Part shown: in pieces, positions 8,370-54,406 of the stretch
Layout: every line of letters starts with the position of its first letter
Position numbering within the stretch: the stretch's first letter is position 1
Made by a program: the position numbers and the translations under genes
Source of the DNA: Candidatus Liptonbacteria bacterium
Lineage (GTDB): Bacteria > Patescibacteriota > Minisyncoccia > UBA6257 > 2-01-FULL-56-20
Length of the DNA: 55,524 nt
Assembly: GCA_016204335.1 (NCBI GenBank)
Contig: JACQKU010000021.1
Location: 1-55,524 of the forward strand
Direction of reading: 5' to 3'
The notes under the pieces: generated by a model
Database searches by the model: none
What the model saw: only the letters and a program-made list of their open reading frames with translations
What the model was told of the DNA's origin: nothing

Positions 8370-8525
8370 GATTGGTTATCAACGAATAACGAATACGATT
8401 TCTCCTCCGAAGGCGGATCCCCGCCTGCGTCCGACTTCGGACGGGCAGGCGCCTCTGGCGGAGAATTTACGAATCTACTTTTTATTTGTTCATTCGTATT
8501 TAATTCGTTATTCGTTGATGGATTT
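8370..8525. mobile_element. Palindromic element with a nested GC hairpin core and cgaataacgaat arms
   Basis: The core ggcggatccccgcctgcgtccgacttcggacgggcaggcgcctctggcggaga (8411-8465) recurs inverted at 22727-22800 with one mismatch by eye. Arms caacgaataacgaatacga and tcgtatttaattcgttattcgttg. Confidence 0.7.
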
Positions 8526-11441
8526 TCACCATTTTTCGACCATCAACATTTTTTCCGGTTCGAATTTCCGATAAATCTCTTCCGTGACGAACGGCATAAA
8601 AGGGTGGAGCATTTTGAGCGATTCAAGTAGAAGCGTTTCGAGCGTTTGGTAAGCGGCTTCGCGATCATTTTCATCAGCGCTGTTCAGCCGCGCCTTGGCA
8701 TCTTCAATTATTTTGTCCGCAAGCGTGTGCCAAATATAATGGTACACGGTTTCGGCGGCCAGGTGGAATTCGAACTTTTCGATATGCGTTGCCACCTTGG
8801 CTTTGATTTTTCGGACTTGTTCTATGTTTTTGCGGTCTTCTTGTGAAAGCGCAGATTTGCGCTGATTACTACGCACCTGCCCGTCCGAAGCCTGGCGAAG
8901 GCGGGGATTTACGCTGATATTTTTTCCGCGTTGGTCCGCGTGCAGTCCGCGTAGTTCCGCGGGTTTGTGCAATTGCACAAACCGCGCGATGTTCCAAATT
9001 TTAGTCGCGAAATTGCGGTACCCGCGGATTTTTTCCTCTGAAATGACAATATCGCGGCCTGCGGTATTGCCGGCAACGAGCGCCATTCGAAGCGCGTCGG
9101 CGCCGTAGAGCTCGGCGACTCCGAGCGGGTCAATCACGTTTCCTTTCGATTTCGACATTTTCTGGCGGTCCTTGTCGAGCACCAGGCCGTGCAGGTACAC
9201 GGTTTTGAAGGGAACTTCGCCGGTCCGGTAGAGCCCGAGCATTATCATCCGCGCGACCCAAAGAAAAAGAATGTCGTATCCTGTTTCCATAACGTCTGTC
9301 GGGTAAAATGTTTTGAAGCCGTTCTTCCTTGTCGCTTGTCGCTTGTCGCTTGTCGCCATTAATGTGGCGAACGGCCATTGCCCCGAAGAAAACCATGTGT
9401 CGAACACATCGGGGTCTTGCTCGTAAAGGTCGCCGCCGCATGTCGAACAAGGGTCGCTTATTGTCAACTCAACTATTTTTGCGTTTTCGATTGCATCGCG
9501 CTCTAGCATTTCCTCGATAGTCCATTTTTTTATGTTTTTAATAATTGTTCTAATCGGACCGCCGTGCGTGACAATGAGAATATTTTTATGGTGATGCGAT
9601 TTCTTGTGATGTTTGAAACTTTCCCATACGCGTTCCTCCAGTTCCTTAAAGCTTTCGCCGCCCGGCGGTTTTCCTTCGTGGGTGTAAAGAATGTCGCCGT
9701 ACATTGCATTGCGGTCGTCCCTCGCCATTCCTTGCGTGATGCCGAGGTGCCGTTCCCTAAGGTTTTTGTCGAAGATTACTTCGGCGCCGGTCGCTTCCCG
9801 GATAATTTCCGCGGTTTCGCGGCAACGGCCCAAGTCGGAACTGATAATAAGGTCGATTCCTCTATGTTTGAGAGTTTCCGCCGCTTTTTTTGCCTGTTGC
9901 CTGCCTTCTCCGTTTAATGGAACATCGGCCTGTCCTTGTGTTCTTCCTTCCTTGTTCCAGTCGGTTTCTCCGTGGCGTATTAAAAACCAGTTGGCTTTTA
10001 TTTTCGGATTGACTGCTGTTTTGCCGCACGTTATGCAGTACCACGCAGGAATTCTTATGCCCCACGTAATCTGCCGCGAGATGTTCCAGTCGCGGAGATT
10101 TTTCATCCAGTTGAAGAATGTTTTTTCAGTTCTCCGCGGTATCAGTTTTATTTTTTTGCTTTTCACCGCTTCCACGCCGAGGTCGCGAAGCGATTTTCCT
10201 CCATTTTGATTTTTGATTTTTCCTGCCCGCCGAAGCATCGGCGCAGGCGGGGATTTTTGATTTTGAGCATGCGGCTCCGCCGTCATGCGAATGAACCACT
10301 GGCTTTTTATCTGCGGTTCTATCGCCGTATTGCATTTGTAGCACACGCGGACGCTGTGTTTGTAATGCTCATCTGTTTTTACAAGCAATCCTTTTGACAC
10401 CAATTTTTCTATAATAAGCAGCCGGGCGTTTTTGATGTGCATGCCGGCGAATTCGCCCGCGACTGGAAGCAATTTACCCCGGAAATCGATAATCTGCTCT
10501 TTTTCGAGTTTGTGCCGCTCGGCGATTTCAAAGTCGGTCGCATCATGCCACGGCGTAATCGTCATCACGCCCGTGCCGAACTTCATATCAATCGCTTTGT
10601 CTTTGACGATTGTCGCCGTAATCGTGCCGTTTATCCATTCCACTTCGATTTTTTGCCCCTGCGCGTATTCCTTGTAGCGCTTGTCGTCAGGGTGCATCAC
10701 CACATATTTGTCGCCGAATTTGGTTTCCGGGCGCGCTGTCGCGATGGTGAACGGTCCGTATTTGAGATAGTAAAACGGGTCTTCCTGTTCGCGGAATTGA
10801 TTCTCGATGTCCGAGAGCGATGTCTGATGTTTCGGGCACCAGTTCACGATGCGCTCGCCCCGGTAAATCAAACCGTCTTTGTAAAGTTTTTCGAATGTTT
10901 CATAAACTATTTTTACGATGTCGGAGTCAAGCGTGAATTTTTCGCGCGACCAGTCGCAGGACGCGCCGAGCCGGCGAAGCTGGTCCTCCATCGTTTTTTT
11001 ATTGTTCTGCGTGAAATCCCAAATTTCTTTGAAAAGTTGTTCGCGGTCGATTTCATATTTATTCCGCCCTTCTTTTTCGAGTTTCTTGTCGAACACCACC
11101 CAAGTTTCGAATCCCGCGTGGTCGGCGCCGGGGAGCCAGAGCGCCTTTTTCCCGCGCATGCGCGCAAAGCGCGTCATAATGTCCTGGAGCGTGACAAACA
11201 CCGCGTGGCCGATGTGGAGCGAGCCGTTCGCGTTCGGCGGCGGCATTATTATTGTAAACGCTGATTTATGCTGATTGACGGGCTGATTTATGCTGATATT
11301 TTTTCGCGTTGATTCGCGTTTAGATTCGCGGAGATTCGCTCCAACCGGCGGCAGCCGGTCGGGATTGAAGTAGCCAGATTTTTCCCAGAGTTTGTAAATC
11401 CGTTCCTCGGTTTTCTGATGGTCGTAGCGCGGTTCGAGCAT
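8526..11441 (-). CDS. valS: Valyl-tRNA synthetase carrying a nested histidine-phosphatase domain and several repeat-derived inserts
   Basis: PPPNANGSLHIGHA (HIGH) and KMSKSKGN (KMSKS) motifs, ValRS-like editing and anticodon-binding regions. Residues ~485-660 read WFLIRHGETDW...ERHLG...IVTHGGPI. Confidence 0.95.
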   Translation of the reverse strand: MLEPRYDHQKTEERIYKLWEKSGYFNPDRLPPVGANLRESKRESTRKNISINQPVNQHKSAFTIIMPPPNANGSLHIGHAVFVTLQDIMTRFARMRGKKALWLPGADHAGFETWVVFDKKLEKEGRNKYEIDREQLFKEIWDFTQNNKKTMEDQLRRLGASCDWSREKFTLDSDIVKIVYETFEKLYKDGLIYRGERIVNWCPKHQTSLSDIENQFREQEDPFYYLKYGPFTIATARPETKFGDKYVVMHPDDKRYKEYAQGQKIEVEWINGTITATIVKDKAIDMKFGTGVMTITPWHDATDFEIAERHKLEKEQIIDFRGKLLPVAGEFAGMHIKNARLLIIEKLVSKGLLVKTDEHYKHSVRVCYKCNTAIEPQIKSQWFIRMTAEPHAQNQKSPPAPMLRRAGKIKNQNGGKSLRDLGVEAVKSKKIKLIPRRTEKTFFNWMKNLRDWNISRQITWGIRIPAWYCITCGKTAVNPKIKANWFLIRHGETDWNKEGRTQGQADVPLNGEGRQQAKKAAETLKHRGIDLIISSDLGRCRETAEIIREATGAEVIFDKNLRERHLGITQGMARDDRNAMYGDILYTHEGKPPGGESFKELEERVWESFKHHKKSHHHKNILIVTHGGPIRTIIKNIKKWTIEEMLERDAIENAKIVELTISDPCSTCGGDLYEQDPDVFDTWFSSGQWPFATLMATSDKRQATRKNGFKTFYPTDVMETGYDILFLWVARMIMLGLYRTGEVPFKTVYLHGLVLDKDRQKMSKSKGNVIDPLGVAELYGADALRMALVAGNTAGRDIVISEEKIRGYRNFATKIWNIARFVQLHKPAELRGLHADQRGKNISVNPRLRQASDGQVRSNQRKSALSQEDRKNIEQVRKIKAKVATHIEKFEFHLAAETVYHYIWHTLADKIIEDAKARLNSADENDREAAYQTLETLLLESLKMLHPFMPFVTEEIYRKFEPEKMLMVEKW

Positions 11442-16307: not shown

Positions 16308-17279
16308 TTATCTCAATGATTCCACTCCAGATGTTATCTCAATTATTTCTCTTGTAATCGACGCCTGGCGGGATTTATTGTATTCGAGGTTCAGTTTCGA
16401 GCCGAGGTCGTCCGCGTTGTCCGATGCGTTTTTCATCGCGAGCCGGCGCGCCGCGTGTTCGGATGCGTTCGCTTCGAGAATCAGATGGTAAATCTGCATG
16501 GTCACAAGATGGGGGACGAGTTCGTTCAGAACCGCTTCCGGCGACGGCTCGATGAGATAATCAACTGATGACTGATGACTTATGACTGATGACTGTTTGA
16601 ACTCGGAGAACCGGCCGGTTTGAGGAATAATTTCTTCCGCGGTTTTTTTGATGCTTTCGAAATCAACCGGAAGTGCGACACGGCGGAGCGGTTCCTGCCG
16701 GAGCGCGCTGCGGAAATGGGTCGAGAACACGATAACGCTGTCCCATTTTTTTTCAAGATAGCCGGAAACCAAAAGCTCGGCAATCGGCTTTACTTCTTCA
16801 ATGGTCGTGAAATCGCCGGCGCGCAGGAATTTATGCGCCAAAGTAAATCTTTTTTGCAAATAATTAGCCGCTTTTTGACCAACGGAAATGAAAACAGGGT
16901 TTAGGGTAGAGGGATTAGGGCTTAGAGTTTTTTCTTGTTTTAGGAACTTTTCAAAGTCGCGAATCACAGCGCTGTTGAACGAACCGGCAAGGCCTTTGTC
17001 CGACGTGACGAGCACGAGCGCGGTTTTTCGAATTTCTCTTTTTTGGAGGAGTGGAGGTATCTCTATATCTCCAAGACGGGCCTGCCCGCCGTAATTTTGA
17101 TGAAGGCGGGCGAGGTTCGCGAGAAAATCCAAACTCGCGAACGCGTATGGGCGCGAAGCGAGCGCGATTTCCTGCGAACGGCGCATTTTGGTCGCCGCGA
17201 CCAGTTCCATCGCTTTTGTGATTTGCCCGATATTTTTGACGCTCTTCGCGCGCCGTTTTATGTTTTGAAGCGATTCCAT
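16308..17279 (-). CDS. atpG: F1 ATP synthase gamma subunit
   Basis: MESLQNIKRRAKSVKNIGQITKAMELVAATKMRR at the N-terminus and ASITREIIEITSG at the C-terminus. Contains repeat-word inserts. Confidence 0.92.
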   Translation of the reverse strand: MESLQNIKRRAKSVKNIGQITKAMELVAATKMRRSQEIALASRPYAFASLDFLANLARLHQNYGGQARLGDIEIPPLLQKREIRKTALVLVTSDKGLAGSFNSAVIRDFEKFLKQEKTLSPNPSTLNPVFISVGQKAANYLQKRFTLAHKFLRAGDFTTIEEVKPIAELLVSGYLEKKWDSVIVFSTHFRSALRQEPLRRVALPVDFESIKKTAEEIIPQTGRFSEFKQSSVISHQSSVDYLIEPSPEAVLNELVPHLVTMQIYHLILEANASEHAARRLAMKNASDNADDLGSKLNLEYNKSRQASITREIIEITSGVESLR

Positions 17280-17369
17280 GGTTTTCTCTACGAATTACGA
17301 ATTTTTTACGAATATACGAATAAACTTAAGTCCTTTTCGTATATTCGTACATTTTCGTATTTCGTAGCA
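17280..17369. repeat. Intergenic tacgaa-word hairpin
   Basis: ctacgaattacgaattttttacgaatatacgaa pairs with ttcgtatattcgtacattttcgtatttcgtag. Confidence 0.7.
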
Positions 17370-18902
17370 TTATTCTAAAAATTTTTGTATTGCCGCCTTC
17401 AATTTTTCCTCGGTTTCGGCCGAGAGCTCTCCGCTTTCCCTGATGGGTTTCAAAATGTCGGCTTCGTGGAATTTTTCGACGTATTCGACGAAAGAGTTTT
17501 CTTTTTCTTTCACCGAGGCGATTTCGAGGTTGTCGAAATAATCGTTGAGCGCCGCGTATAAAATAACAACCTCTTTTTCAAAAGGCATCGGCGCAAGGTC
17601 ATTTTGTTTGAGAACTTCGGTGATTACCTGACCGTGCTTGATTCTTTTTTTGGTGGTTTCGTCCACGTCGGCTGCGAATTGGATGAATGCCTGGAGTTCG
17701 CGGAACTGCGCGAGCGCGAGCCGGAGGCGGCCGGCGACTTTTTTCATCGCTTTCGTCTGCGCCGCGGAGCCGACACGCGAGACAGAAAGCCCGACGTTGA
17801 TGGCCGGCCTGATGCCCTGGTAAAAAAGTTCGCTTTCAAGATAAATCTGGCCGTCTGTGATTGAGATTACGTTGGTCGGGATGTACGCCGTGACATCGCC
17901 GAGCTGTGTTTCGACGATGGGGAGGGCGGTCAGCGAGCCGCCGCCTTTCTCTTTCGAGAGTTTTGCCGCGCGTTCGAGCAGGCGCGAGTGGAGATAAAAA
18001 ATATCCCCGGGATACGCTTCGCGGCCCGGCGGCCGGCGAAGCAAAAGCGAAATTTGCCGGTATGCCCAGGCGTGTTTCGAAAGGTCGTCGTAAATTACGA
18101 GCGCGTCCTGTCCTTTGTCGCGGAAGTATTCTCCGATGGCGCAGCCCGCTAGCGGAGCAAGATACCACAGCGCGGCAGGGGACGAAGCGGGCGCAGAAAC
18201 AACGACTGTGTGCTTTAAGGCGTCGAAATTTTTTAGAGTTTCGACGATTTTCGCGATTTTCGATTCTTTTTGCCCAATCGCTACATAGATGCAAATAACT
18301 TGTCGCTTGTCGCTTGTCGCTTGTCGCTGGTTAATTATCGTGTCCAGAACCACCGCGGTTTTGCCGGTTTGCCGGTCGCCGATGATGAGTTCTCGCTGGC
18401 CTCTGCCGATAGGTATCATCGCGTCTATGCTTTTTATGCCTGTGTGAACGGGCGTGTTGACGGGTTCGCGGTCCATAACCGAAGGCGCTTTATTTTCCAA
18501 AAAGTAGCGTTCGGATTTTTGAGCCGTCTTGGCGGAGAATATCGGGCCTTTGCCGTCCGAAGGATTTCCCAGCGGGTCAATAACTCTGCCTGCGAGTTCG
18601 GGTCCGACTTCGATTGAAAGAACCTGACCGGTATTCCGCACGAGGTCGCCGCTTTTGATATGCTGGTACTCTCCGAGGACGAGCGCGCCGATAGTTTCTT
18701 CTTCAAGGTTAAGAGCCACGGCTCGCACAACTTCTTCCGATGTTTCGATGTCGAGGAGCTCCTGGCTCAAAGTTTTTCCGAGGCCGGAAATTTTCACGAT
18801 GCCGTCGCTTACTTCGATTACTTTCCCGACATCCTCCCATTTCTTCTCGTCTTTGTATCCCTCGATTTCCTTTTTCAGTTTTTCTATTATTTCGTAGCTC
18901 AT
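17370..18902 (-). CDS. atpA: F1 ATP synthase alpha subunit
   Basis: [10 protein letters not shown] Walker A and full-length alpha similarity. Start placed at MSYEIIEK. Contains the QATSDKRQ insert from a (cttgtcg)4 tract. Confidence 0.97.
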
Positions 18903-18923
18903 AGTGTTTAATTTAAAAATCAA

Positions 18924-19056
18924 ATCTCAAAAATCAAAATGACAAATCAAAATTTTCCGCCAAAGGCGGATCCGCCTCGGGCGGAAAAAAGACAAAGCAT
19001 GAATTCTTTTTACATTTTACACTTTCATTTTGCATTTTGATATTTGCACTTTGCAT
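18924..19056. mobile_element. MITE-like element with GC double-hairpin core (divergent copy)
   Basis: caaaatgacaaatcaaaattttccgccaaaggcggatccgcctcgggcggaaaaaaga...ttacattttacactttcattttgcattttgatatttg. Confidence 0.7.
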
Positions 19057-19434
19057 TTAGGAAAATAGCTTATCTATTTTCCGCTTGAGCGACCCGTCGA
19101 ACTGGGTTTCATCGTTGACGGTAATTTTTACTCCCGCCAACAGTTCCGGATTTATTTTTTCTTCAACGACATCGGTCTTTATGAGGAAATGTCCAAATTT
19201 TGTTTTAAGATTCGCTACTTCTCGCGCGGTTTCGATTGTCACGCTCCGCCGCCCTGTTTTCACCCTCAAAATTTTTTCCGTTTCCTCAAAAATTTTTTTA
19301 AGCTGATGCGTGTCGTTATTTTTTTCGATAACTTCAAAAAAATTTTTGACGAGACGGGTTTCTTCGGTCTTGTTCAAATCGCCGGCGGCGAGTTCGCCGA
19401 ATGCCTGCGCGTATAGTTTCGAAGGATATTTCAT
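19057..19434 (-). CDS. atpH: F1 ATP synthase delta (OSCP) subunit, short form (125 aa)
   Basis: YAQAFGELA at the N-terminus and LLAGVKITVNDETQFDGSLKRKIDKL at the C-terminus are delta-like. Lies between atpF and atpA. Confidence 0.75.
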   Translation of the reverse strand: MKYPSKLYAQAFGELAAGDLNKTEETRLVKNFFEVIEKNNDTHQLKKIFEETEKILRVKTGRRSVTIETAREVANLKTKFGHFLIKTDVVEEKINPELLAGVKITVNDETQFDGSLKRKIDKLFS

Positions 19435-19943
19435 GCTGTCTGTTTCGCGCTTTTTAATTCTCCAATCGCCTTTTTAATCAAAACTTCGTCGATTGTTTCC
19501 GGCGACAATTCCACGGTTTTCGCTATCGCTTCCCTGACGAGTCCGACCGCTTCTTTCCTGACAAGTTCCCGCGCTTCCTGATTTTTCGTCTCTATAATCA
19601 GCTCGGCGTTTTTCAGAATTGCGTTTTCTTTTTCTTTCGCCTGCGACAGAAGAGCCGATTCCAAAGTTTTCGCTTTTTGTTCGGTTTCCCTAAGCATTGC
19701 AAGGGCGTCCTGCTCGGCTTCCTTCAGTTTTTCTTTTTTAAGGAGATTCGCTTCACTGAGTCGGGTTTCGGCCTCTTCGGATTTTCTGACGCCGTCCTCG
19801 ATTTTTTCCTTTCGTTCTTTCAAAATTTTCAATACCGGCTTGTAGACCAGGAAAGTGAGAAGGGTGACGAGAATCAAAAAATTGACTGCTTGCGAAGTAA
19901 GCAGTCGCCAGTCGATGCCGAGTTGTTGGAAAAGTTCTTGCAT
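19431..19943 (-). CDS. atpF: Fo ATP synthase subunit b
   Basis: Single N-terminal TM (LTSQAVNFLILVTLLTFLVYKPV) followed by a long charged helix. Operon position fits. Confidence 0.8.
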   Translation of the reverse strand: MQELFQQLGIDWRLLTSQAVNFLILVTLLTFLVYKPVLKILKERKEKIEDGVRKSEEAETRLSEANLLKKEKLKEAEQDALAMLRETEQKAKTLESALLSQAKEKENAILKNAELIIETKNQEARELVRKEAVGLVREAIAKTVELSPETIDEVLIKKAIGELKSAKQTA

Positions 19944-20035
19944 AGAAGCGAAAAAGTGCGAATCAACCTGCGAATCAGTGCGAAATTTTTTCGCGTCATT
20001 TCGCCCAACTTTCGCGGTGATTCGCTTCTAGTTCG
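19944..20035. repeat. Intergenic gcgaa-word hairpin
   Basis: agcgaaaaagtgcgaatcaacctgcgaatcagtgcgaaatttttt pairs with cgcgtcatttcgcccaactttcgcggtgattcgcttc. Confidence 0.5.
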
Positions 20036-20505
<470 letters not shown>

Positions 20506-21243
20506 TTAGTGTGCCTCTTCATGCTCAGCAGTGGCTATAGCGGTGAAGACGAGCGATAGCATCGCGAAAATAAACGCCTGGATGAATCCCACGAATAATT
20601 CAAGAAAGAGAAACGGCAGAGGAATGACATACGGAATCAAAAACGCGGCAACCACAAGAAGCACTTCGCCGGCGAACACATTGCCGAACAGCCGGAACGA
20701 AAAAGAAACGATTTTTGCGAACTCGGAAACCAATTCGAGGGTTCCAATGAAAAAACCGACGGGGCTCTTGAAGTTGAAAAATTTGGAAAGATGCGCGCGC
20801 GCGCCTATGGCAAGAATACCCAGGATATTCGCGCAAATGACGGTTATGAGCGCGAGCGCGAGCGTGAAGTTGAGGTCGCTTGCCGGCGAGCGGAAGAGTG
20901 GAATAAACTCTTTGTGTTCTTGAAGGCCGATTGAACCGATGCCGGGCATCAGGCCGAGCCAGTTCGAAAACAGGATAAAAACAAAAATAGTCGCGACCAG
21001 CGGCAGATATTTTTCCGATTTTTTCCGCTCGCCGAGCACAGAGTCCATAAGGCGCAGGAGTTCCTCTATGACAAACTCGATTACATTTTGGAGCATGCCG
21101 GGAATAATCCTGATGCTTCTCCGCGAGAGAATCGCGATGGCCGCTATGATAACCGCAGCCGTCACGGAGAGAAGAAGCGTATTTGTGACTGAAAGACCTC
21201 CTAAACGGAAAATTTCTTCGGCTTTGAGAGAGATGTGTACCAT
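20506..21243 (-). CDS. atpB: Fo ATP synthase subunit a
   Basis: Multi-pass membrane protein with the conserved SFSFRLFGNVFAGE motif. First gene of the atp operon here. Confidence 0.9.
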   Translation of the reverse strand: MVHISLKAEEIFRLGGLSVTNTLLLSVTAAVIIAAIAILSRRSIRIIPGMLQNVIEFVIEELLRLMDSVLGERKKSEKYLPLVATIFVFILFSNWLGLMPGIGSIGLQEHKEFIPLFRSPASDLNFTLALALITVICANILGILAIGARAHLSKFFNFKSPVGFFIGTLELVSEFAKIVSFSFRLFGNVFAGEVLLVVAAFLIPYVIPLPFLFLELFVGFIQAFIFAMLSLVFTAIATAEHEEAH

Positions 21244-21315
21244 AATACTGGAATTATATGATAAAAAAAGAGGTAGAATCAACCCCGCAAAATGGAATTA
21301 TGAGCAGATATAAGC

Positions 21316-21356
21316 GAACGGCTCATTTCTTCCCATTTGAGCCGTTCAACGGCTCA
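21316..21356. promoter_or_regulatory. Three copies of a 9-10-mer (GAACGGCTCA) in alternating orientation upstream of atpB
   Basis: gaacggctca (21316-25), tgagccgttc (21338-47) and aacggctca (21348-56). The last two form the palindrome TGAGCCGTTcAACGGCTCA. Confidence 0.4.
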
Positions 21357-21425
21357 AATGATATTATATTTATAGATATCAGCAACTTTTCAGCTTAATG
21401 CTTAGCGAAATATAAATTTCGTTTG

Positions 21426-22726: not shown

Positions 22727-22800
22727 GAGAATCTCCGCCAGAGGCGCCTGCCCATCCGAAGTCGGACGCAGGCGGGGATCCGCCTTTGGCGGAGAACTCC
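22727..22800. mobile_element. GC nested-hairpin core element, inverted copy of 8401-8466
   Basis: Reverse complement matches ggcggatccccgcctgcgtccgacttcgga(c/t)gggcaggcgcctctggcggaga. Flanked by ttgtagccc/gtagcccca (22707-24) and ttgtagcccca (22836-46). Confidence 0.7.
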
Positions 22801-22838
22801 TAATTTTATTTACGCCGCGTGCCCCCACACCAAAGTTG

Positions 22839-22910
22839 TAGCCCCACGGGGAGTCGAACCCCGGTTACCGGCTTGAAAAGCCGATGTCCTAACCGCTAGA
22901 CGATAGGGCC
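22839..22910 (-). tRNA. tRNA-Glu (anticodon UUC)
   Basis: Reverse complement is GGCCCTATCGTCTAGCGGTTAGGACATCGGCTTTTCAAGCCGGTAACCGGGGTTCGACTCCCCGTGGGGCTA. Hand-folded cloverleaf has G-U pairs at 1-72 and 6-67. Confidence 0.85.
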
Positions 22911-28101: not shown

Positions 28102-31100
28102 ATGTCTTCTTTTAAAAATCCCCAATCCGGTTTTCGAGCAAAGTTTCTCCCGTGCGCTATCTGCGCGCTTGTCATTCTTTTAATTTCCGCCTTTTCGTAT
28201 TATTTCTTTTCTCATATTAATTCCACCTTCGCTTTCACCGGCCCATCGACTTCCGTAGGCATCGGCGGCGGCGCCATCGGCGTTGATTCCTCCAACAACT
28301 TGAGCATCGGCACTTCCGCGACCCAGCCGGACACCAAACTTCTGATTGTCGTTTCCTCCACGGACGCATCCAATTTCGGGTTCAAGATACTGCAACCCGG
28401 CCAGAATCCGATATTTGTCGTCAGAAACGACGGCAGTATAGGAATCGGGACTGCGAATCCAACAAGCACATTGACTGTTGTAGGCGCCGTTAAAAGCACA
28501 AATGGCGGTTTCATTTTTCCCGACGCCACAATTCAAACAACAGCTTATCTGGGCGGGTCCCAGGCGATTAACGCTTCAAATATTACCGCCGGCGTATTCG
28601 GCGCGGGCAACTTCGCCTTTCCTTCGTCGCTCGGAATCGCGACATCAACGCAGGTAGGTCTTCCTCAATCGCTCTCAATCTACGGCGGAGGGTATTTCAG
28701 CGGCAACGTCGGCATCGGGACGGCGGGACCGAATGCCAAGTTATCCATTGGAAATAATGTCGCGACGGGATTTCTCGATAATTATAGTGAATACCAGATA
28801 ATGCTCTACGACGCCGGTACAGCCGCCGGTTCGTATGGAATTGGCATTAAGTCAGGCACAATGGTCTTTAATGCCGGCGCCGCCGCCTATAGTTTTGATC
28901 GTAGCGGAAATGCCACCACGATGACCCTTGATGGCTCCGGCAACGTCGGCATCGGGACGACGAATCCGAGCAATTTACTGCATGTCAGTGGATCAAACCA
29001 GGGCATCCGATTAACCGAAACAGGGGCTTCGAAGAGTTGGCTTCTCCAGAACTCTGGTTCAGATCTTCTCCTTACAGAAGTTGGTTCTGGAAATCGTGTT
29101 GTATTTCAAGCGGGCGGCAACGTCGGCATCGGTATGACTGCGCCGAGCACCAAACTCGAAGTCGCCGGAAACGTGAGCTCGACAGCGTTGTGTCTCGGCG
29201 GAACTTGCAATACGACATGGCCGTCCGGCGGCGGGGGAGGATCGATTTCAACTTCGTCTGCCATCACTGCCGGATACTTCCCGTATTGGGCGAACACGAC
29301 CGGCGGTCTGAACGGCACATCAAATATTTTTCAATCTGGCGGCAACGTCGGCATCGGGACGGCTGCGCCGGCAGGCAAGCTTGATGTATCAAGCGGCGGA
29401 GCCGGCATTTCCGCCGGCGATTTGGTTGTTGATACTGCCAATAAAACGGTATATGTCGGGCGGCAGAGCGGAAACATTGGCGACAGCAGTTTGTTTATCA
29501 CCAGAAATAGATTTGGAACAAAACTCCTCGTTGTTGATACGAACAATCAAATCTCATATTTTGAAAGCGGCAACGTCGGCATCGCCACCACTACTCCTTC
29601 TTTTCCTCTGACGGTCCAAGGCAATGCGTATGTTAGCGGCACGCTTACTGCCGGCAGCATATCCGGTTCATACGCCGGCACAGTCTCCGCGGCGAACGTC
29701 ACCGCCGGCGTATTCGGCGCGGGCAACTTCGCCTTTCCTTCGTCGCTCGGAATCGCGACATCAACGCAGGTAGGTCTTCCCCAATCGCTCTCAATCTACG
29801 GCGGAGGGTTCTTCAGTGGCAACGTCGGCATCGGGACGGCGGCGCCCGGCCAAAAACTCGAAGTCGCAGGCAACGTATCTTCAACCGGCCTTTGTCTCGG
29901 CGGAACTTGCAATACGACATGGCCTGCGAGTGGAGGCGGAGTTACATCGGTTTTTGCCAGAACCGGAGCAGTAATTGCGACAACCGGAGATTATGCGGTG
30001 GCGCAAGTTACGGGAGCCGCCCCTCTGGCGAGCCCGACATTTACCGGCATTCCGGCGGCGCCCACCGCCGCAGGAGGAACTAATACAACGCAACTGGCTA
30101 CAACGGCATTCGTAACTACTGCCGTAAGCGGCGCGACTATCACCGCCGGCAATGTTTCTTCCGGTTCTTTCGGTTCAAACACCGGCGGCGGGAATTACAC
30201 CTTTCCCGCGAGCGTTAACTTCGCCGGTTCGGGCATTTGGAATTCATCCGGCAATGTCGGCATAGGGACGGCGGCGCCGGGAGCGAAGTTGGAAGTAGTC
30301 GGAAATACGCTTCTGAACGCTAATAAACTTGGCTTTACAAACACAGGCGGGATAATGTTCAACGGTTTGTCTGATTGGAATTGGCAATTAAGAACAACAA
30401 GCGGTTGGAATTATGTATGGACAGGCGCCAGTTCCGGAGAGAGAAGTTGGATTTTTGCCGACAAGACCAATAGTACAAACGATGACACTTGGACTGAGCG
30501 GTTCAAAGTTAGAATGAGCGATGGACAAACATATATGGCGGGCAACGTCGGCATCGGGACGGCGGCGCCGGGAGCGAAGTTGGACATACGACCTATTTCT
30601 TTTGCCGGCAGCCAAAGCGGCGGCATAAAGCTTGATACGCTCACTGGGAATTGGCCGTCAGGAATGTATTTACGGAGCGATGTCGGCGGTACGCCAAGAT
30701 TGGCGCTTGATATTGTTTCTACGGAAGCGTTGTCTATCGTAAACGGCGGCAACGTCGGCATCGGGACGGCGAGTCCGCTCGCTAAGTTACATATTTCTGG
30801 TAGCAGTTCGGGAGCCTCAAATATACGGCTGACGAGCACAATCGTCGGCGGGCGGTCGTGGGAACTGAACCCATATGCTATAGGTGTTAGCGATACCCCG
30901 TTTACGATCCGAGACGTTACCGCAGGGGCAGATAGGATTACAATTGACTCTTCCGGCAACGTCGGCATCGGAACGGCAAATCCGGGAGCACGACTCCAGG
31001 CAATCGGAGCGGATAGTTTGGGCACTTCGTTCGCGTTTTACGCCGGCGGAACAACTGGAACGGGACTGACCATGACCAACGCGAACAACGTCGGCATCGG

Positions 31101-32226
31101 GACGACGGCGCCGGGGACTTCGTTACATGTAAATTTGCCAACTCAAACCACAGCAACCGTAAATTCATTACTTATCTCAAGATGGACAAGACCACAGACA
31201 GGAGGTGTTAAATGGGGAAATTCTATGGATATGCTTTTGGGCAGTTATGGAACTTCGATGAATTCTCAATCTCGCGTTGATTTCAAATTAGCAGACGGCG
31301 GCACTGATTTACCAGACACTACAGTAATGACACTCCAGGGTAACGGCAATGTCGGCATAGGAACGAGCAACCCAAACAGGAAACTTGACGTAAGCGAAAG
31401 CGGTGATGGAATAGCTTTTGGTCGGCAGTCGGATAATATCTTGTCGATCCAGTCCTATATCGATGGCCACTGGGCGGACCGAACCACATACGCGGACGGA
31501 TGCTGCAATAATCTTGTTCTCCAGCCGGATGTGGGTGGTGTCGGCATCGGGATACAGGAAGCGCCAAACGCGAAGCTGGAGATTGGCGGTTCCAACGCTG
31601 CCGGTGAAACCCGCATGATTTTTTCCACGAACAGTTCTCCAAAGTCGAATAGATTTTTTATTAAGACAGATCTTGATGTCAGTTCAAACAATGATATCCT
31701 CGAGTTCAGTTCAACAAATGTAGGCAATATTATTGTCTTAAAAGGAGACGGCAAAGTTGGTATCGGGGCGGCGCCGTCCAGCTATCAATTGCAACTTTCC
31801 ACAGATTCTGCCGGAAAACCGAACGGTGGTTCATGGGCTAACTCTTCCGATGAAAGGCTGAAAACAAACATCAAGCCCGTTAAAGACGCACTTGCCAAAA
31901 TAACCAAACTTCAACCGATACTGTTTGATTGGCGAAATCCATTGCTACATGGCAACGCGGTTTCGAGTGGCGGTTTCGCGGCACAGCAAATCGCCGAGGT
32001 ATTCCCAGAGTTTGTAACAGATGTCCCTTGCGCCGGCGCCGATTGTTCGCTTACCGATAACGGAAAAGTGAAATCGCTCACCTTGCCGTTCACGTTTGAC
32101 GCTTATCTTGTGGGCGCCGTCAAGGAACAGCAGACCGAAATTGACGCGTTGAAATCCGAAAACGCCGGATTAAAAATAGAAATAAATTCTTTGAAAGCCC
32201 GCATAGACGCGCTGGAGAAAAAATAG
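28102..32226 (+). CDS. Giant (1374 aa) membrane-anchored fibre-like protein with GNVGIGT-xxP-xxKLEV repeats and a C-terminal S74 intramolecular-chaperone domain
   Basis: About 15 copies of ggcaacgtcggcatcgggacg (GNVGIGT). C-terminus is NSSDERLKTNIKPV...LQPILFDWRN...GGFAAQQIAEVFPEFV plus a coiled coil, as in endosialidase/tail-fibre chaperone domains. Confidence 0.85.
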   Translation: MSSFKNPQSGFRAKFLPCAICALVILLISAFSYYFFSHINSTFAFTGPSTSVGIGGGAIGVDSSNNLSIGTSATQPDTKLLIVVSSTDASNFGFKILQPGQNPIFVVRNDGSIGIGTANPTSTLTVVGAVKSTNGGFIFPDATIQTTAYLGGSQAINASNITAGVFGAGNFAFPSSLGIATSTQVGLPQSLSIYGGGYFSGNVGIGTAGPNAKLSIGNNVATGFLDNYSEYQIMLYDAGTAAGSYGIGIKSGTMVFNAGAAAYSFDRSGNATTMTLDGSGNVGIGTTNPSNLLHVSGSNQGIRLTETGASKSWLLQNSGSDLLLTEVGSGNRVVFQAGGNVGIGMTAPSTKLEVAGNVSSTALCLGGTCNTTWPSGGGGGSISTSSAITAGYFPYWANTTGGLNGTSNIFQSGGNVGIGTAAPAGKLDVSSGGAGISAGDLVVDTANKTVYVGRQSGNIGDSSLFITRNRFGTKLLVVDTNNQISYFESGNVGIATTTPSFPLTVQGNAYVSGTLTAGSISGSYAGTVSAANVTAGVFGAGNFAFPSSLGIATSTQVGLPQSLSIYGGGFFSGNVGIGTAAPGQKLEVAGNVSSTGLCLGGTCNTTWPASGGGVTSVFARTGAVIATTGDYAVAQVTGAAPLASPTFTGIPAAPTAAGGTNTTQLATTAFVTTAVSGATITAGNVSSGSFGSNTGGGNYTFPASVNFAGSGIWNSSGNVGIGTAAPGAKLEVVGNTLLNANKLGFTNTGGIMFNGLSDWNWQLRTTSGWNYVWTGASSGERSWIFADKTNSTNDDTWTERFKVRMSDGQTYMAGNVGIGTAAPGAKLDIRPISFAGSQSGGIKLDTLTGNWPSGMYLRSDVGGTPRLALDIVSTEALSIVNGGNVGIGTASPLAKLHISGSSSGASNIRLTSTIVGGRSWELNPYAIGVSDTPFTIRDVTAGADRITIDSSGNVGIGTANPGARLQAIGADSLGTSFAFYAGGTTGTGLTMTNANNVGIGTTAPGTSLHVNLPTQTTATVNSLLISRWTRPQTGGVKWGNSMDMLLGSYGTSMNSQSRVDFKLADGGTDLPDTTVMTLQGNGNVGIGTSNPNRKLDVSESGDGIAFGRQSDNILSIQSYIDGHWADRTTYADGCCNNLVLQPDVGGVGIGIQEAPNAKLEIGGSNAAGETRMIFSTNSSPKSNRFFIKTDLDVSSNNDILEFSSTNVGNIIVLKGDGKVGIGAAPSSYQLQLSTDSAGKPNGGSWANSSDERLKTNIKPVKDALAKITKLQPILFDWRNPLLHGNAVSSGGFAAQQIAEVFPEFVTDVPCAGADCSLTDNGKVKSLTLPFTFDAYLVGAVKEQQTEIDALKSENAGLKIEINSLKARIDALEKK

Positions 32227-35241: not shown

Positions 35242-37566
35242 TTACTCCGGATGAATTTTTTGTTTGAATTCATCGAGCCGTTCGATAAGCAATGGATATT
35301 TTTTCAAATTTCCGCCGTTTTGGATAACCTTAAGCGCGGCGGCTCTCGATTGCTTGATGAGTTCTATGTCCTGCAGTCCGCGCATCGCAATGTCGGGCAG
35401 GCCGGTTTGTTTTTGTCCGATGAATTCGCCGGGACCGCGCAGTTTCAAATCCTTTTCCGCCAGCTCAAATCCGTTTTTTGCTTCAAGAATCGCTTTCAGA
35501 CGCTCGCTTGTCGCTTTTGAATCCGAATCGGTGAACAGAAAACAAAACGACTGGTGCCCGCCCCTGCCCACTCTGCCGCGGAGCTGGTAGAGTTGCGCGA
35601 GTCCGAATCGCTCGCTTCCCTCTATCATCATTATGCTTGCGTTCGGCACGTCCACGCCTACCTCGATAACCGAAGTTGAAACGAGAATATCGGACTTGCC
35701 TGCCGCGAAGGAGGACATAATTTTTTCTTTTTCTTTTGACCGCATCCTGCCGTGAAGCATCGCCACTCGAAGGTCCGGAAAAATTTTCCGCGAAAGTTTT
35801 TCGTACTCTTCCTTTACTGCCTTGGTTTCCCAAGGCACCGCTGATTTATGCCGATTAAGCTGATTGATGCGGATGTCGTCATCAGCATAAATCCGCTTAT
35901 CATCAGCATTGATCAGCGTGTCCCCGTTAATACGGGGACAGATGACGAATGCCTGCCGCCCCTTTTTAATTTGCTCGCGGATAAACTGATACGCTTTATG
36001 GCGGTTTTCCGGCGCCACGATTTTGGTGGTAATCGGCTTTCTTCCCAAAGGAAGTTCGGTGATAGTTGAAATATCGAGGTCGCCGAAAACAGTGAGCATA
36101 AGCGTGCGGGGTATCGGCGTGGCTGACATACTTAATAGGTGAGGAATCAGAGAACGATTTTTTAATAATTCAGCTCTCTGTTTTACTCCAAATCGATGTT
36201 GTTCATCAATGACCACCAAAGCCAAACTGTTAAACGTTGCGTCTTTCTGAATAAGCGCGTGAGTGCCGACAATTATTTTTATTTCGCCGGCTCCCGCTTT
36301 CTTTTTAAAATCAGTCTTTGAAATTTTCGCTTCAAGGTCATTTTCGTACAGCACTTCTGCGAAAGATGATGTCAGAATGCCGACAGCGGGCTGGTCAGCC
36401 GCGCTGATTCCGTGAAAAAGTTTTTTCAACGTTTCGAAATGCTGGCGCGCGAGTATTTCGGTCGGAGCCATGAAAACGCTTTGAAATCCGTTTTGGCTCG
36501 CGAGCAGAGCCGCGAGCGCGGCGATGACGGTTTTTCCGGAGCCGACATCGCCCTGGAGCAGGCGATTCATCGGCATGGGTTTTTCGATGTCCTGGATAAT
36601 TTCCCAAAGCGATTTTTTTTGCGAAGGAGTGAGCGTGAAAGGCAAACCCTTAAGAATCTCTTTCAGTTTTTCAATGTCAGTTCGTATTGCCGGAGCTTTT
36701 TCCAGCGCGAGTTTCAACTTCTGTTGAGTGTTGAGAATCTGAAGCAGAAACAATTCTTCGAACGCAAACCGTTTTTTTGCCAGAAGCGCCGCGTCAATGG
36801 TGTCCGGAAAATGGACTGCGGCAAGCGCGCGGTTGATGTCGGGAATGCCTGCTGTTGCGAGAACTTCTTTTGGCAGCCAGTCCGTGGGCGGCTCAAGGTT
36901 TTTCAAAATCGGCTGGACAAGAAATCTGATGCCCTTTGATGTCAGTCCGCGGGTTTCGGGGTATATGGGCACCAAACGCGCCGTATGGCGCGTTTCGCTG
37001 ACTGACGCGCCTGCCCGTCCGAAGCTAGGCGCCCGGCCTTCGTAGCCGAAGCTACTTCGGCGGAGTAGGCAAGGCGGGGACTTGACGCTGACTGACGCTG
37101 AATTCTGGGAGATAGAATTTTCCGCGTAGTTCTGCGTATAGTCTGCGTGATTCCGCGCTGGGATGAGTTCGTAGATAGGATGCGAAAGAGCGAGATTATC
37201 TTCGCTTAATGTGATTTTGCCGGAAAAATTCGCCCATCGGCCCGGCCTCAATACATTGAGAAGATACGGTTGATTGAACCAAGTCGCCTTGATGTCGCCT
37301 GATTCGTCCCGGATAATTGCTTCAACAATGACGAACCTCCGCCTGAAGCTTCGTCTGATTTTTATACTCTGAATTACTCCCTGGATTGTTCCGTGCCGGC
37401 CCGGTTCGAGTTCGGCGATTGGAATAATTTCCGAAAAGTCCTCGTAACGGAACGGAAAATGCCAAAGCAGGTCTTTGACGGTGAGAATGTTCAGCTTCGC
37501 GAAATTCCGCAAAAAGCGTGGAGCGATACCGTTTATTTCCGAAAGAAGCGTTTGGAGTTTCAACAC
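35242..37566 (-). CDS. recG: ATP-dependent DNA helicase RecG
   Basis: OB/wedge N-terminal region, GDVGSGKT, DEQHRFG, and RGRVGRG in the C-terminal helicase motifs. Two repeat-derived inserts. GTG or TTG start. Confidence 0.92.
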   Translation of the reverse strand: MLKLQTLLSEINGIAPRFLRNFAKLNILTVKDLLWHFPFRYEDFSEIIPIAELEPGRHGTIQGVIQSIKIRRSFRRRFVIVEAIIRDESGDIKATWFNQPYLLNVLRPGRWANFSGKITLSEDNLALSHPIYELIPARNHADYTQNYAENSISQNSASVSVKSPPCLLRRSSFGYEGRAPSFGRAGASVSETRHTARLVPIYPETRGLTSKGIRFLVQPILKNLEPPTDWLPKEVLATAGIPDINRALAAVHFPDTIDAALLAKKRFAFEELFLLQILNTQQKLKLALEKAPAIRTDIEKLKEILKGLPFTLTPSQKKSLWEIIQDIEKPMPMNRLLQGDVGSGKTVIAALAALLASQNGFQSVFMAPTEILARQHFETLKKLFHGISAADQPAVGILTSSFAEVLYENDLEAKISKTDFKKKAGAGEIKIIVGTHALIQKDATFNSLALVVIDEQHRFGVKQRAELLKNRSLIPHLLSMSATPIPRTLMLTVFGDLDISTITELPLGRKPITTKIVAPENRHKAYQFIREQIKKGRQAFVICPRINGDTLINADDKRIYADDDIRINQLNRHKSAVPWETKAVKEEYEKLSRKIFPDLRVAMLHGRMRSKEKEKIMSSFAAGKSDILVSTSVIEVGVDVPNASIMMIEGSERFGLAQLYQLRGRVGRGGHQSFCFLFTDSDSKATSERLKAILEAKNGFELAEKDLKLRGPGEFIGQKQTGLPDIAMRGLQDIELIKQSRAAALKVIQNGGNLKKYPLLIERLDEFKQKIHPE

Positions 37567-41335: not shown

Positions 41336-41419
41336 ATGTCAAGACAATACCCAATCGAAAAAACCCGCAACACCCGCCTTCGCAAACGCTTCGGCGGGCA
41401 GGTCGACATCATCTTATAG
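41336..41419 (+). pseudogene. Duplicated fusA 5' end forming a 27-codon mini-ORF
   Basis: [12 protein letters not shown]..., compared with [15 protein letters not shown]. tagaaattttatg occurs at both 41326 and 41417. The copy then runs into a GC hairpin (cccgccttcgcaaacgcttcggcggg). Confidence 0.65.
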
Positions 41420-49608: not shown

Positions 49609-49688
49609 CTTAATGGCTACGAAATACGAAAAAGTACGAATATACGAATTCGTATATTCGTAAAAATTCGTAATTCGTAGAGATCACC
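49609..49688. repeat. Intergenic tacgaa-word hairpin (~32-bp arms around gaattc)
   Basis: ctacgaaatacgaaaaagtacgaatatacgaa and ttcgtatattcgtaaaaattcgtaattcgtag. The arms are complementary except for one 4-5-nt internal loop. Confidence 0.75.
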
Positions 49689-50009
49689 ATGTCACGTTCT
49701 TCAAAAAAAGGGCCGTATATCGCCCCGGATATTCTGAAAAAAATTTCCCGCGTGAGAGCCGATGCAAATCAGGTGCTCAAAACCTGGTCGCGGGCATCCG
49801 AGATTTCACCGGAGATGGTCGGCTACATATTCGGAGTGCATAACGGCAAAAGTTTCATTGAAGTAAAAATCGCCGAAGATATGGTCGGACATCGCCTCGG
49901 CGAGTTTTCGCCCACAAGGAAGTTCATCAAGCACGGCGGGAAAATACAGAAAGATATCGAGCAGAAAGAGCAGGTCGCGGCGAAAACCGAACCGGCAGTA
50001 AAGAAGTAA
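49689..50009 (+). CDS. rpsS: 30S ribosomal protein S19
   Basis: SRSSKKGPYIAPDILKKI...VHNGKSFIEVKIAEDMVGHRLGEFSPTRKFIKHGG. Confidence 0.95.
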   Translation: MSRSSKKGPYIAPDILKKISRVRADANQVLKTWSRASEISPEMVGYIFGVHNGKSFIEVKIAEDMVGHRLGEFSPTRKFIKHGGKIQKDIEQKEQVAAKTEPAVKK

Positions 50010-50163
50010 AATCAAAAATCAAACATCAAAATGCAAAATGACAATGTAAAATGTAAAAGGAATTCAAGCACATTCTTTTTTCCGCCCGAGGCGGATCCGC
50101 CTTCGGCGGAGAATTTTGATTTGTCATTTTTATTTTTGATTTTTGCAGTTTGAATTTACTATC
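50008..50163. mobile_element. MITE-like element, near-identical copy A
   Basis: 119 nt (50008-50126) differ at one position from 55406-55524. Inverted copy at ~54266-54380. The GC core is ttccgcccgaggcggatccgccttcggcggagaa. The right arm runs to 50163. Confidence 0.85.
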
Positions 50164-53921: not shown

Positions 53922-54045
53922 TGAGAATAAATCTCTAAACCCTAATCTCTAAATCCTAAACAATATCAAAATACAAATCTCAAAAACGTTTTGAATTTTG
54001 AAATTCGAGATTGTTTAGAGATTAGAAATTAGAGATTAATATATC
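53922..54045. repeat. Long intergenic hairpin built from tctctaa words (~50-nt arms)
   Basis: aatctctaaaccctaatctctaaatcctaaacaat...caaaaacg pairs with cgttttg...attgtttagagattagaaattagagatt. Confidence 0.7.
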
Positions 54046-54231: not shown

Positions 54232-54406
54232 AAATAAATGCAAACTGTAAAAATCAAAAATAAAAATGGCAAATCAAAGTTCTCCGCCGAAGGCGGATCC
54301 GCCTCGGGCGGAAAAAAGAATGTGCTTGAATTCCTTTTACATTTTACATTGTCATTTTGCATTTTGATATTTGATTTTTAAATTTGTTGCTATGTATTAA
54401 GATTTA
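54232..54406. mobile_element. MITE-like element, near-identical copy B (inverted relative to A and C)
   Basis: By eye, the reverse complement of ~54266-54380 matches copies A and C with 2-3 mismatches. Confidence 0.85.

Follow-up and report, generated by a model that had tools for sequence, protein, structure and literature searches.

Within the valS gene of the 55,524-nt stretch analysed here (Candidatus Liptonbacteria bacterium, contig JACQKU010000021.1, positions 1 to 55,524; hereafter the window), which encodes valyl-tRNA synthetase (ValRS), an A-rich segment built around a GC hairpin is probably a copy of a small, non-autonomous dispersed repeat of the Parcubacteria group (Patescibacteria), tolerated in a loop of the enzyme. 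The actual repeat unit is 66 nt long (10203-10268) and consists of GCTC, AAAATCAAAAATC, a 30-nt hairpin core and AAAAATCAAAAATCAAAAT; it may be described as a run of AAAAATC heptamers split mid-way by the hairpin. This unit recurs in frame in seven further housekeeping genes of other metagenome contigs (gltX, ileS, pheS, miaA, trmD, topA and pgk). Coordinates are collected in Table 1.

The host gene (8526-11441, minus strand), which is essential, encodes 971 residues with intact HIGH and KMSKS motifs, shows the Pfam domains tRNA-synt_1 (class I synthetase core), Anticodon_1 (anticodon-binding) and His_Phos_1, and matches the ValRS of Thermus thermophilus (PDB 1GAX) with E = 2e-148. The 90 nt from 10280 to 10191 correspond to codons 388-417, are in frame and stop-free, and translate as AEPHAQNQKSPPAPMLRRAGKIKNQNGGKS; on the coding strand they read gctcaaaatcaaaaatc-CCCGCCTGCGCCGATGCTTCGGCGGGCAGG-aaaaatcaaaaatcaaaatgg, with AAAATC words on either side of the GC hairpin. 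A preliminary description of this DNA had reported just such an in-frame hairpin between A-rich words, and reading frame, translation, 13-mer counts and folding all agree with it. With at most one mismatch allowed, the window contains 13 occurrences of the 13-mer AAAATCAAAAATC, whereas shuffles lead one to expect 0.71 (13 was reached in 0/100 shuffles), and two of these occurrences are those flanking the valS hairpin. Folded as 34 nt, the core hairpin reaches -17.7 kcal/mol (z = -2.25), while the whole 90-nt segment folds no better than shuffles (z = -0.73), pairing being confined to the 30-nt core. Because the copies of the element are nearly identical, no claim of covariation can be made for this hairpin.

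The segment is extra with respect to ValRS of distant phyla, as had been proposed. The spacing between the QWF and DWxISRQ motifs is 41 residues in 70 of 79 ValRS genes from diverse phyla versus 70 residues in the window. A ValRS profile scan of genome contigs with very general patterns returned mostly distant phyla, which served as outgroups only. In the alignment with 1GAX, query residues 387 to 426 stand against residues 364 to 374, leaving about 29 query residues unmatched. The insertion itself therefore stands, and it is its extent, given as 30 residues or 90 nt, that needs correction: the net excess in the loop is 29 residues, and the repeat unit of 66 nt is nested between the older loop residues TAEPH and GG.

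Scanning metagenome contigs for the 18-nt junction CAAAAATCCCCGCCTGCG yielded 79 loci, ten of which, at eight distinct sites, carry the whole unit, the other 69 matching the 18-mer alone. The two classes are cleanly apart in nhmmer, with ten full-length matches at 57-77 bits and chance 18-mer matches at 27 bits or less. In the alignment of the copies similarity starts at (GCTC)AAAATCAAAAATC and stops at AAAAATCAAAAATCAAAA, and the outer flanks are unrelated. Hosts were identified by Pfam (GluRS, TopA, IleRS, MiaA and PheRS-alpha) or by PDB matches (TrmD and Pgk, where the insert lies in variable loops), and the eight hosts include four aminoacyl-tRNA synthetases and two tRNA-modification enzymes. 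On the A-rich strand every copy keeps the host frame, has no stop codon and has a length divisible by three. The hosts between them use each of the three sense frames, giving the peptides QNQKSPPAPRLRRAGKIKNQN, LKIKNPRLRRGFGGQEKSKIKN and KSKIPACAEASAGRKNQKSKV; in the 66-nt consensus the three sense frames are open, as is one of the three antisense frames. That one DNA sequence is read in three frames within eight unrelated proteins rules out a functional peptide and marks the unit as a dispersed DNA element: it is the DNA that is conserved, not the peptide.

Searches with the element and its putative products were negative within their scope. The 30-residue window peptide had no phmmer matches among 1.84 billion representatives, low-complexity filtering being the likely reason, and the three frame peptides gave no scored candidates in a set of 5.8 billion proteins. 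Rfam returned only chance-level matches on the element (three tRNAs of the window reached the gathering threshold), blastn against phages gave no match, and a simple terminator scan flagged the core on neither strand.

Filled and empty sites were found between relatives. The PheRS-alpha with the element (340 residues) falls in the same cluster at ≥90% identity as two proteins of 325 residues, and these proteins are 96-97% identical apart from a 15-residue gap at the element; at the DNA level, filled pheS (locus L127) is 96% identical to empty pheS (L168 and L169) and has 45 nt that the latter lack, the empty site reading CTAAAAAATGGGCTG. IleRS orthologs at 63-68% identity have an empty site (HWPFxKKLEYPADF), the ileS of locus L119 carries the full element, and in P0136/L167, the nearest relative of L119 at 74% identity, the element lacks the core. 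The same exact difference of 30 nt separates valS genes: at the element site those of loci L081 (63% identical protein) and L082 (55%) read CAAAATCAAAAATCAAAAATCAAAAATCAAAATG, and to this heptamer run the window gene adds exactly 30 nt behind the second unit. All three valS genes share the 34-nt run without a change, although their flanking codons differ at synonymous sites. Without the core the heptamer run measures 36 nt, and it is found in this form at the same sites in orthologs. The element is modular, a heptamer run with an optional 30-nt core, and was recently gained or lost. The insertion in ValRS has more than one layer, with a coreless run in two relatives and a loop in related Patescibacteria. 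In another assembly an IleRS fragment of 743 residues (P0131) is 100% identical to the L119 protein, in whose frame the element begins at about residue 744; this agreement between fragment length and element position suggests that the repeat breaks assemblies or gene calls.

The AlphaFold2 model of the window ValRS (33-sequence alignment, mean predicted local distance difference test score, pLDDT, of 76.9) places residues 385-417 in coil, with a strand before and a helix after, and gives pLDDT below 50 at residues 394-412. The insert is thus predicted to be a disordered loop, in line with the surface loop that had been anticipated. The other low-confidence segments of the model (residues 30-71, 698-713 and 832-861) coincide with three further repeat-derived inserts, and across the four variable ValRS loops the tandem heptamers differ between genomes (AAAAGTC, GYGTCAG, GCGACAA, GGATCGG, GCAACCA). 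Where the window has (GCGACAA)x4, at residues ~697-707, two ValRS homologs (P0027 and P0044) carry a folded-looking insert of ~100 residues (KKMGFHEEVVPQVLDGKTKTYRLRDH...).

The 120 closest ValRS homologs are all Patescibacteria, and their site is either empty (QWFVKM-KP-LAE) or filled (QWFxRMT, then 6-35 low-complexity residues, then KSLRD). In a rough neighbour-joining tree filled and empty states are intermingled, so that the valS site is either a recurrent target or often lost. In many clade members the loop is constant at 60 residues between the motifs on either side. This constancy would suit a native low-complexity loop, old and lineage-specific, in which a heptamer microsatellite grew by slippage, only the 30-nt hairpin was inserted, and the likeness elsewhere reflects shared mutational bias. 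Such a history would also account for the different heptamers at the same site between genomes (AAAAGTC, GYGTCAG), for the resemblance between the native C-terminal KLKIKN tract of ileS and the arm words, and for a period-7 signal that is genome-wide. In the window, exact 6-mers reappear 7 nt away about 40 times per 10 kb, versus about 9 times for spacings of 6 and 8 nt, and the signal is echoed at 14 and 21; the peak is present in most of the relatives' loci (L081-L087), weakly in L084 and not in L085, and distant phyla show the codon period only, with no period-7 peak. Hints of the same recurrence were seen in Roizmanbacteria, Wildermuthbacteria, Harrisonbacteria and one Omnitrophota locus. 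However, slippage in place would not be expected to give eight unrelated genes arms of identical length (13 and 18-19 nt), the same core and the GCTC prefix, or to add or remove 45 nt between pheS genes of 96% identity. A further point against it is the 34-nt run that three valS genes share unchanged despite synonymous differences in the flanks. We therefore regard a purely native loop as unlikely.

Still less probable is the one-step insertion of a spacer palindrome, by which a member of the 50008-50163 family, comprising all 90 nt, would have transposed into valS in the manner of the Rickettsia palindromic elements (RPEs). In the window as in L081, long palindromes made of runs of roughly 7-nt words occupy the spacers of the ribosomal-protein and ATP-synthase operons. 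They fill most gaps (e.g. 806-930, 1714-1808, 2163-2263 and 17280-17369, and further 19944-20035, 49609-49688, 50008-50163 and 53922-54035) with words such as TACGAAA, GCGAAxx, AAAATG and AATCTCT, the same word types being found in the operon spacers of L081. Some contain a 30-nt GGATCC-centred core CCGCCCGAGGCGGATCCGCCTTCGGCGGAG (50082-50111, 54286-54315 and 18959-18988) and others do not (2163-2263 and 806-930). The preliminary description had seen the same layout in the valS segment, and part of this likeness is real: both have a GC core between A/T-rich words, AAAATCAAAAATC is strongly over-represented in the window, and 19 of 20 nt of arm words match spacer 50013-50032, a score equalled in 2/500 shuffles. 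The likeness is limited to the arm words. Spacer 50008-50163 has inverted arms and forms one long hairpin (z = -6.1), whereas the valS arms are direct and therefore form none (z = -0.73), and the two cores belong to different families. Inverted word arms, long hairpin and GGATCC-centred core are all lacking in the valS segment, and membership in the intergenic family is thus rejected. Furthermore, the unit is 66 nt and not ~150, orthologs have a coreless run, and the in-frame copies elsewhere all show the 66-nt direct-arm layout. An inverted arm could not survive in a gene, since every frame of (GATTTTT)n runs into TGA; (AAAAATC)n has no stop in any of the three.

Ribosomal bypassing has precedents in phage T4 gene 60 and in the mitochondrial byp elements, and matched AAAAATC words on either side of a -17.7 kcal/mol hairpin, together with a core that is optional and differs between orthologs by exactly 30 nt, could recall take-off and landing sites or a segment removed from the RNA; that the core or the whole element goes untranslated is nevertheless hardly credible, as all copies are stop-free and 3n long, which bypassed or spliced elements need not be, they are read in three frames and have no stop where take-off would occur, and there are neither intron or intein features nor an Rfam match. 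An intein, an intron and an assembly artefact were also considered for the valS insert and rejected, the frame being intact and the element small and recurrent in independent assemblies.

On the reading as a tolerated copy of a dispersed repeat, the segment sits in a surface loop right after the strand ending QWFIRM, a loop that is lacking in ValRS of other phyla and repeatedly filled or emptied within the clade. Since the three frames of the A-rich strand have no stop and the length is a multiple of three, copies that land in tolerant loops in this orientation would survive. They would be transcribed and translated as about 22 disordered residues rich in Lys, Asn, Gln and Arg, and selection would leave only stop-free, 3n-long copies in loops; most likely the insert is tolerated by ValRS and not used. 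As to its spread, our leading guess is that short-homology recombination or template switching copies it into tracts that contain AAAAT; a single-strand transposase is a possible alternative. The filled and empty sites of pheS and ileS show no clean target-site duplication, and the empty sites hold AAAAT tracts overlapping the arm sequence. Such a tract is present in all three readable empty sites (pheS CTAAAAAAT, ileS AATAAAAAATTA, valS GTGAAAATGAAACC), and in L119 the native C-terminal KLKIKN tract of IleRS seems to have been turned into AAAATC words. Both observations fit short-homology copying, as weak evidence in DNA that is A-rich.

Several points weigh against a dispersed, tolerated repeat. 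The full 66-nt copy occurs only once within the 55-kb window. No transposase was found among the 20 window open reading frames (ORFs) scanned, including no Y1 transposase or REP-associated tyrosine transposase (RAYT)-like gene, and no clean target-site duplication is evident. Filled valS alleles always have the RMT..KSLRD flanks, and the loop length (19 residues) is the same as that of an older structured insert in other Patescibacteria, so that part of the extra loop may be old and native and not derived from the element. Slippage at the site could have built the heptamer run, the core alone being mobile. Translation of the insert is inferred from its frame and from stop-codon statistics. Finally, copies 95-98% identical occur in hosts that by assignment belong to different candidate phyla: the window ValRS has mostly Candidatus Liptonbacteria as its nearest named relatives and the L119 IleRS has Candidatus Azambacteria, a different Parcubacteria-group candidate phylum, and the element copies of these two hosts differ at one or two of 66 positions. 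A bolder reading, which we put forward only tentatively, is that of an active 36/66-nt family moving between distant Parcubacteria-group lineages and in frame into essential translation genes, with site-specific machinery that also adds or removes the hairpin precisely.

The valS core belongs to a family with the consensus CCCGCCT, 13 variable nt and GGCGGGCAGG (30 nt), represented by at least seven copies in the 55 kb, four of the seven inside genes (valS twice, atpG and recG). Aligned with the copy at 8418-8453, its nearest relative in the window, the valS core scores 45; shuffles average 16.6, and 0/500 reached this score. Around these copies, the L081 counterpart of the core insert in atpG (window 16308-17279) has extra nested hairpins, and recG (35242-37566) contains a further word-run insert, INADDKRIYADDDIRINQLNRHKSA, besides the core. 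In two composite GC structures of 71 nt (22744-22802 and 8394-8464), which are mutually complementary at 93%, a valS-type core is joined to a half of the GGATCC type; one of the two adjoins a tRNA gene at 22839-22910.

Table 1. Positions in the window of the valS element, its parts and its relatives.
Feature	Position	Strand	Basis or remark
valS, host gene: ValRS with His_Phos_1 domain in zinc knuckle	8526-11441	-	ORF, translation, Pfam, PDB 1GAX
90-nt segment of the preliminary description, codons 388-417	10191-10280	-	translation; net excess of 29 residues over canonical ValRS
66-nt dispersed element, encodes A392-N413	10203-10268	-	sharp-edged alignment; nhmmer 76.5 bits, E = 3e-21
GCTC and left arm AAAATCAAAAATC	10252-10268	-	coding-strand sequence, copy alignment
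30-nt GC hairpin core CCCGCCTGCGCCGATGCTTCGGCGGGCAGG, optional module	10222-10251	-	missing in valS of L081 and L082; fold -17.7 kcal/mol
Right arm AAAAATCAAAAATCAAAAT, direct orientation	10203-10221	-	coding-strand sequence, copy alignment
Word-run insert at valS N-terminus, GCGAATC and AATCAGC words	11262-11354	-	pLDDT <50 at residues 30-71
(GCGACAA)x4 heptamer array, in frame in valS	9328-9356	-	pLDDT <50 at residues 698-713; orthologs with other heptamers
Second core of the valS family near the valS C-terminus, in frame, flanked by ATCAGCG words	8873-8911	-	repeat family D16; nhmmer E = 1e-4; within AlphaFold2 segment 832-861
Intergenic core copy just downstream of valS, closest window relative of the valS core	8418-8453	+	alignment score 45
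Armless 30-nt core, in frame in atpG	17081-17110	-	same site in L081 and L083; absent in L084
Composite core of the valS family, in frame in recG	37007-37042	-	RecG by Pfam
Intergenic armless 30-nt core, valS family	41373-41402	+	nhmmer

The host enzyme carries, between the CxxC pairs of its zinc knuckle, a complete His_Phos_1 domain (window 9453-9986, residues 486-663), which is present in 118 of the 120 closest ValRS homologs and also in the L119 IleRS of the Azambacteria-like contig and most of its relatives. Elsewhere in the window, an ORF of 1374 residues (28102-32226) resembles a surface or fibre protein: it contains more than ten GNVGIGT-type repeats (DNA repeat families D2-D4) and has a Peptidase_S74 chaperone domain at its C-terminus. 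Among the related loci, L083 has a GyrB with an intein match (Intein_splicing) at 17331-20074, and L081 a 23S_rRNA_IVP-family gene between rpsK and rpsM (21090-21398).

To our knowledge, in-frame selfish DNA in essential proteins comes down to essentially one textbook case, that of Rickettsia. The valS-type element would add a structurally different one, in bacteria of the candidate phyla radiation with small, otherwise streamlined genomes, and could account for many odd low-complexity inserts in the proteins of these organisms; annotators and structure predictors should be aware that such loops derive from repeats. Its modular 30-nt core and its filled and empty alleles at 96% identity make it a tractable system for studying how tiny elements move and how enzymes tolerate inserts. 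Were the family indeed active, it would amount to a new way for protein loops to evolve in the smallest bacterial genomes.

A full-text search of the literature on repeats of candidate phyla and Patescibacteria found no description of such elements, and we compared the valS-type element with known systems from other organisms. It falls outside the definition of a miniature inverted-repeat transposable element, since it has no terminal inverted repeats, its two arms repeating the same words in one orientation. Short GC-rich hairpins that invade A/T-rich DNA, coding sequence included, and show presence/absence between alleles are also known from yeast mitochondria, as GC clusters and byp elements; both are organellar, and byp elements, over which the ribosome hops, have no need to keep the frame, whereas valS-type copies are all in frame and stop-free. 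Repetitive extragenic palindromes (REP) and their paired forms (REPIN) are GC-rich imperfect palindromes of ~30 nt, present in many copies, extragenic and linked to RAYT (PMC3116915). The valS core family is likewise a GC-rich imperfect palindrome with at least seven copies in 55 kb; in contrast, four of its seven window copies lie in genes and the 20 window ORFs include no RAYT-like gene.

RPEs, as summarised in PMC10969869, are short repeats of non-coding type found in frame in unrelated housekeeping genes (Ogata et al., 2000), whose proteins gain a conserved peptide and can still fold and function. The valS-type element is also dispersed and in frame in protein-coding genes, valS and seven others, and the Rickettsia precedent invoked in the preliminary description is apt as a functional analogy. 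By the structural description in that summary, RPEs are ~100-150 bp long, palindromic over their length and restricted to Rickettsia, unlike the valS-type element, which measures 36 or 66 nt, has direct heptamer arms and a hairpin of only 30 nt, is read in three frames and belongs to Patescibacteria. By structural definition it is thus not an RPE, although the analogy in function is good.

The closest architectural parallel comes from Cyanobacteria, whose small dispersed repeats (SDRs) are reportedly mobile, hairpin-forming inserts of 21-27 nt nested in heptanucleotide repeats. Their short tandemly repeated repetitive (STRR) sequences, as in stem P6b of the Nostoc tRNA-Leu intron, are degenerate heptanucleotide runs of variable copy number, interrupted by short extra elements (PMC3488679). 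Here too, tandem heptamers are interrupted by a short hairpin insert that is present or absent between arrays. The phylum is another one and the sequences, by description, are different; the comparison speaks for a shared architecture and not for common descent. Moreover, the cyanobacterial cases are mostly non-coding or in introns, whereas the valS-type composite is a defined 66-nt unit that lies in frame in essential genes.

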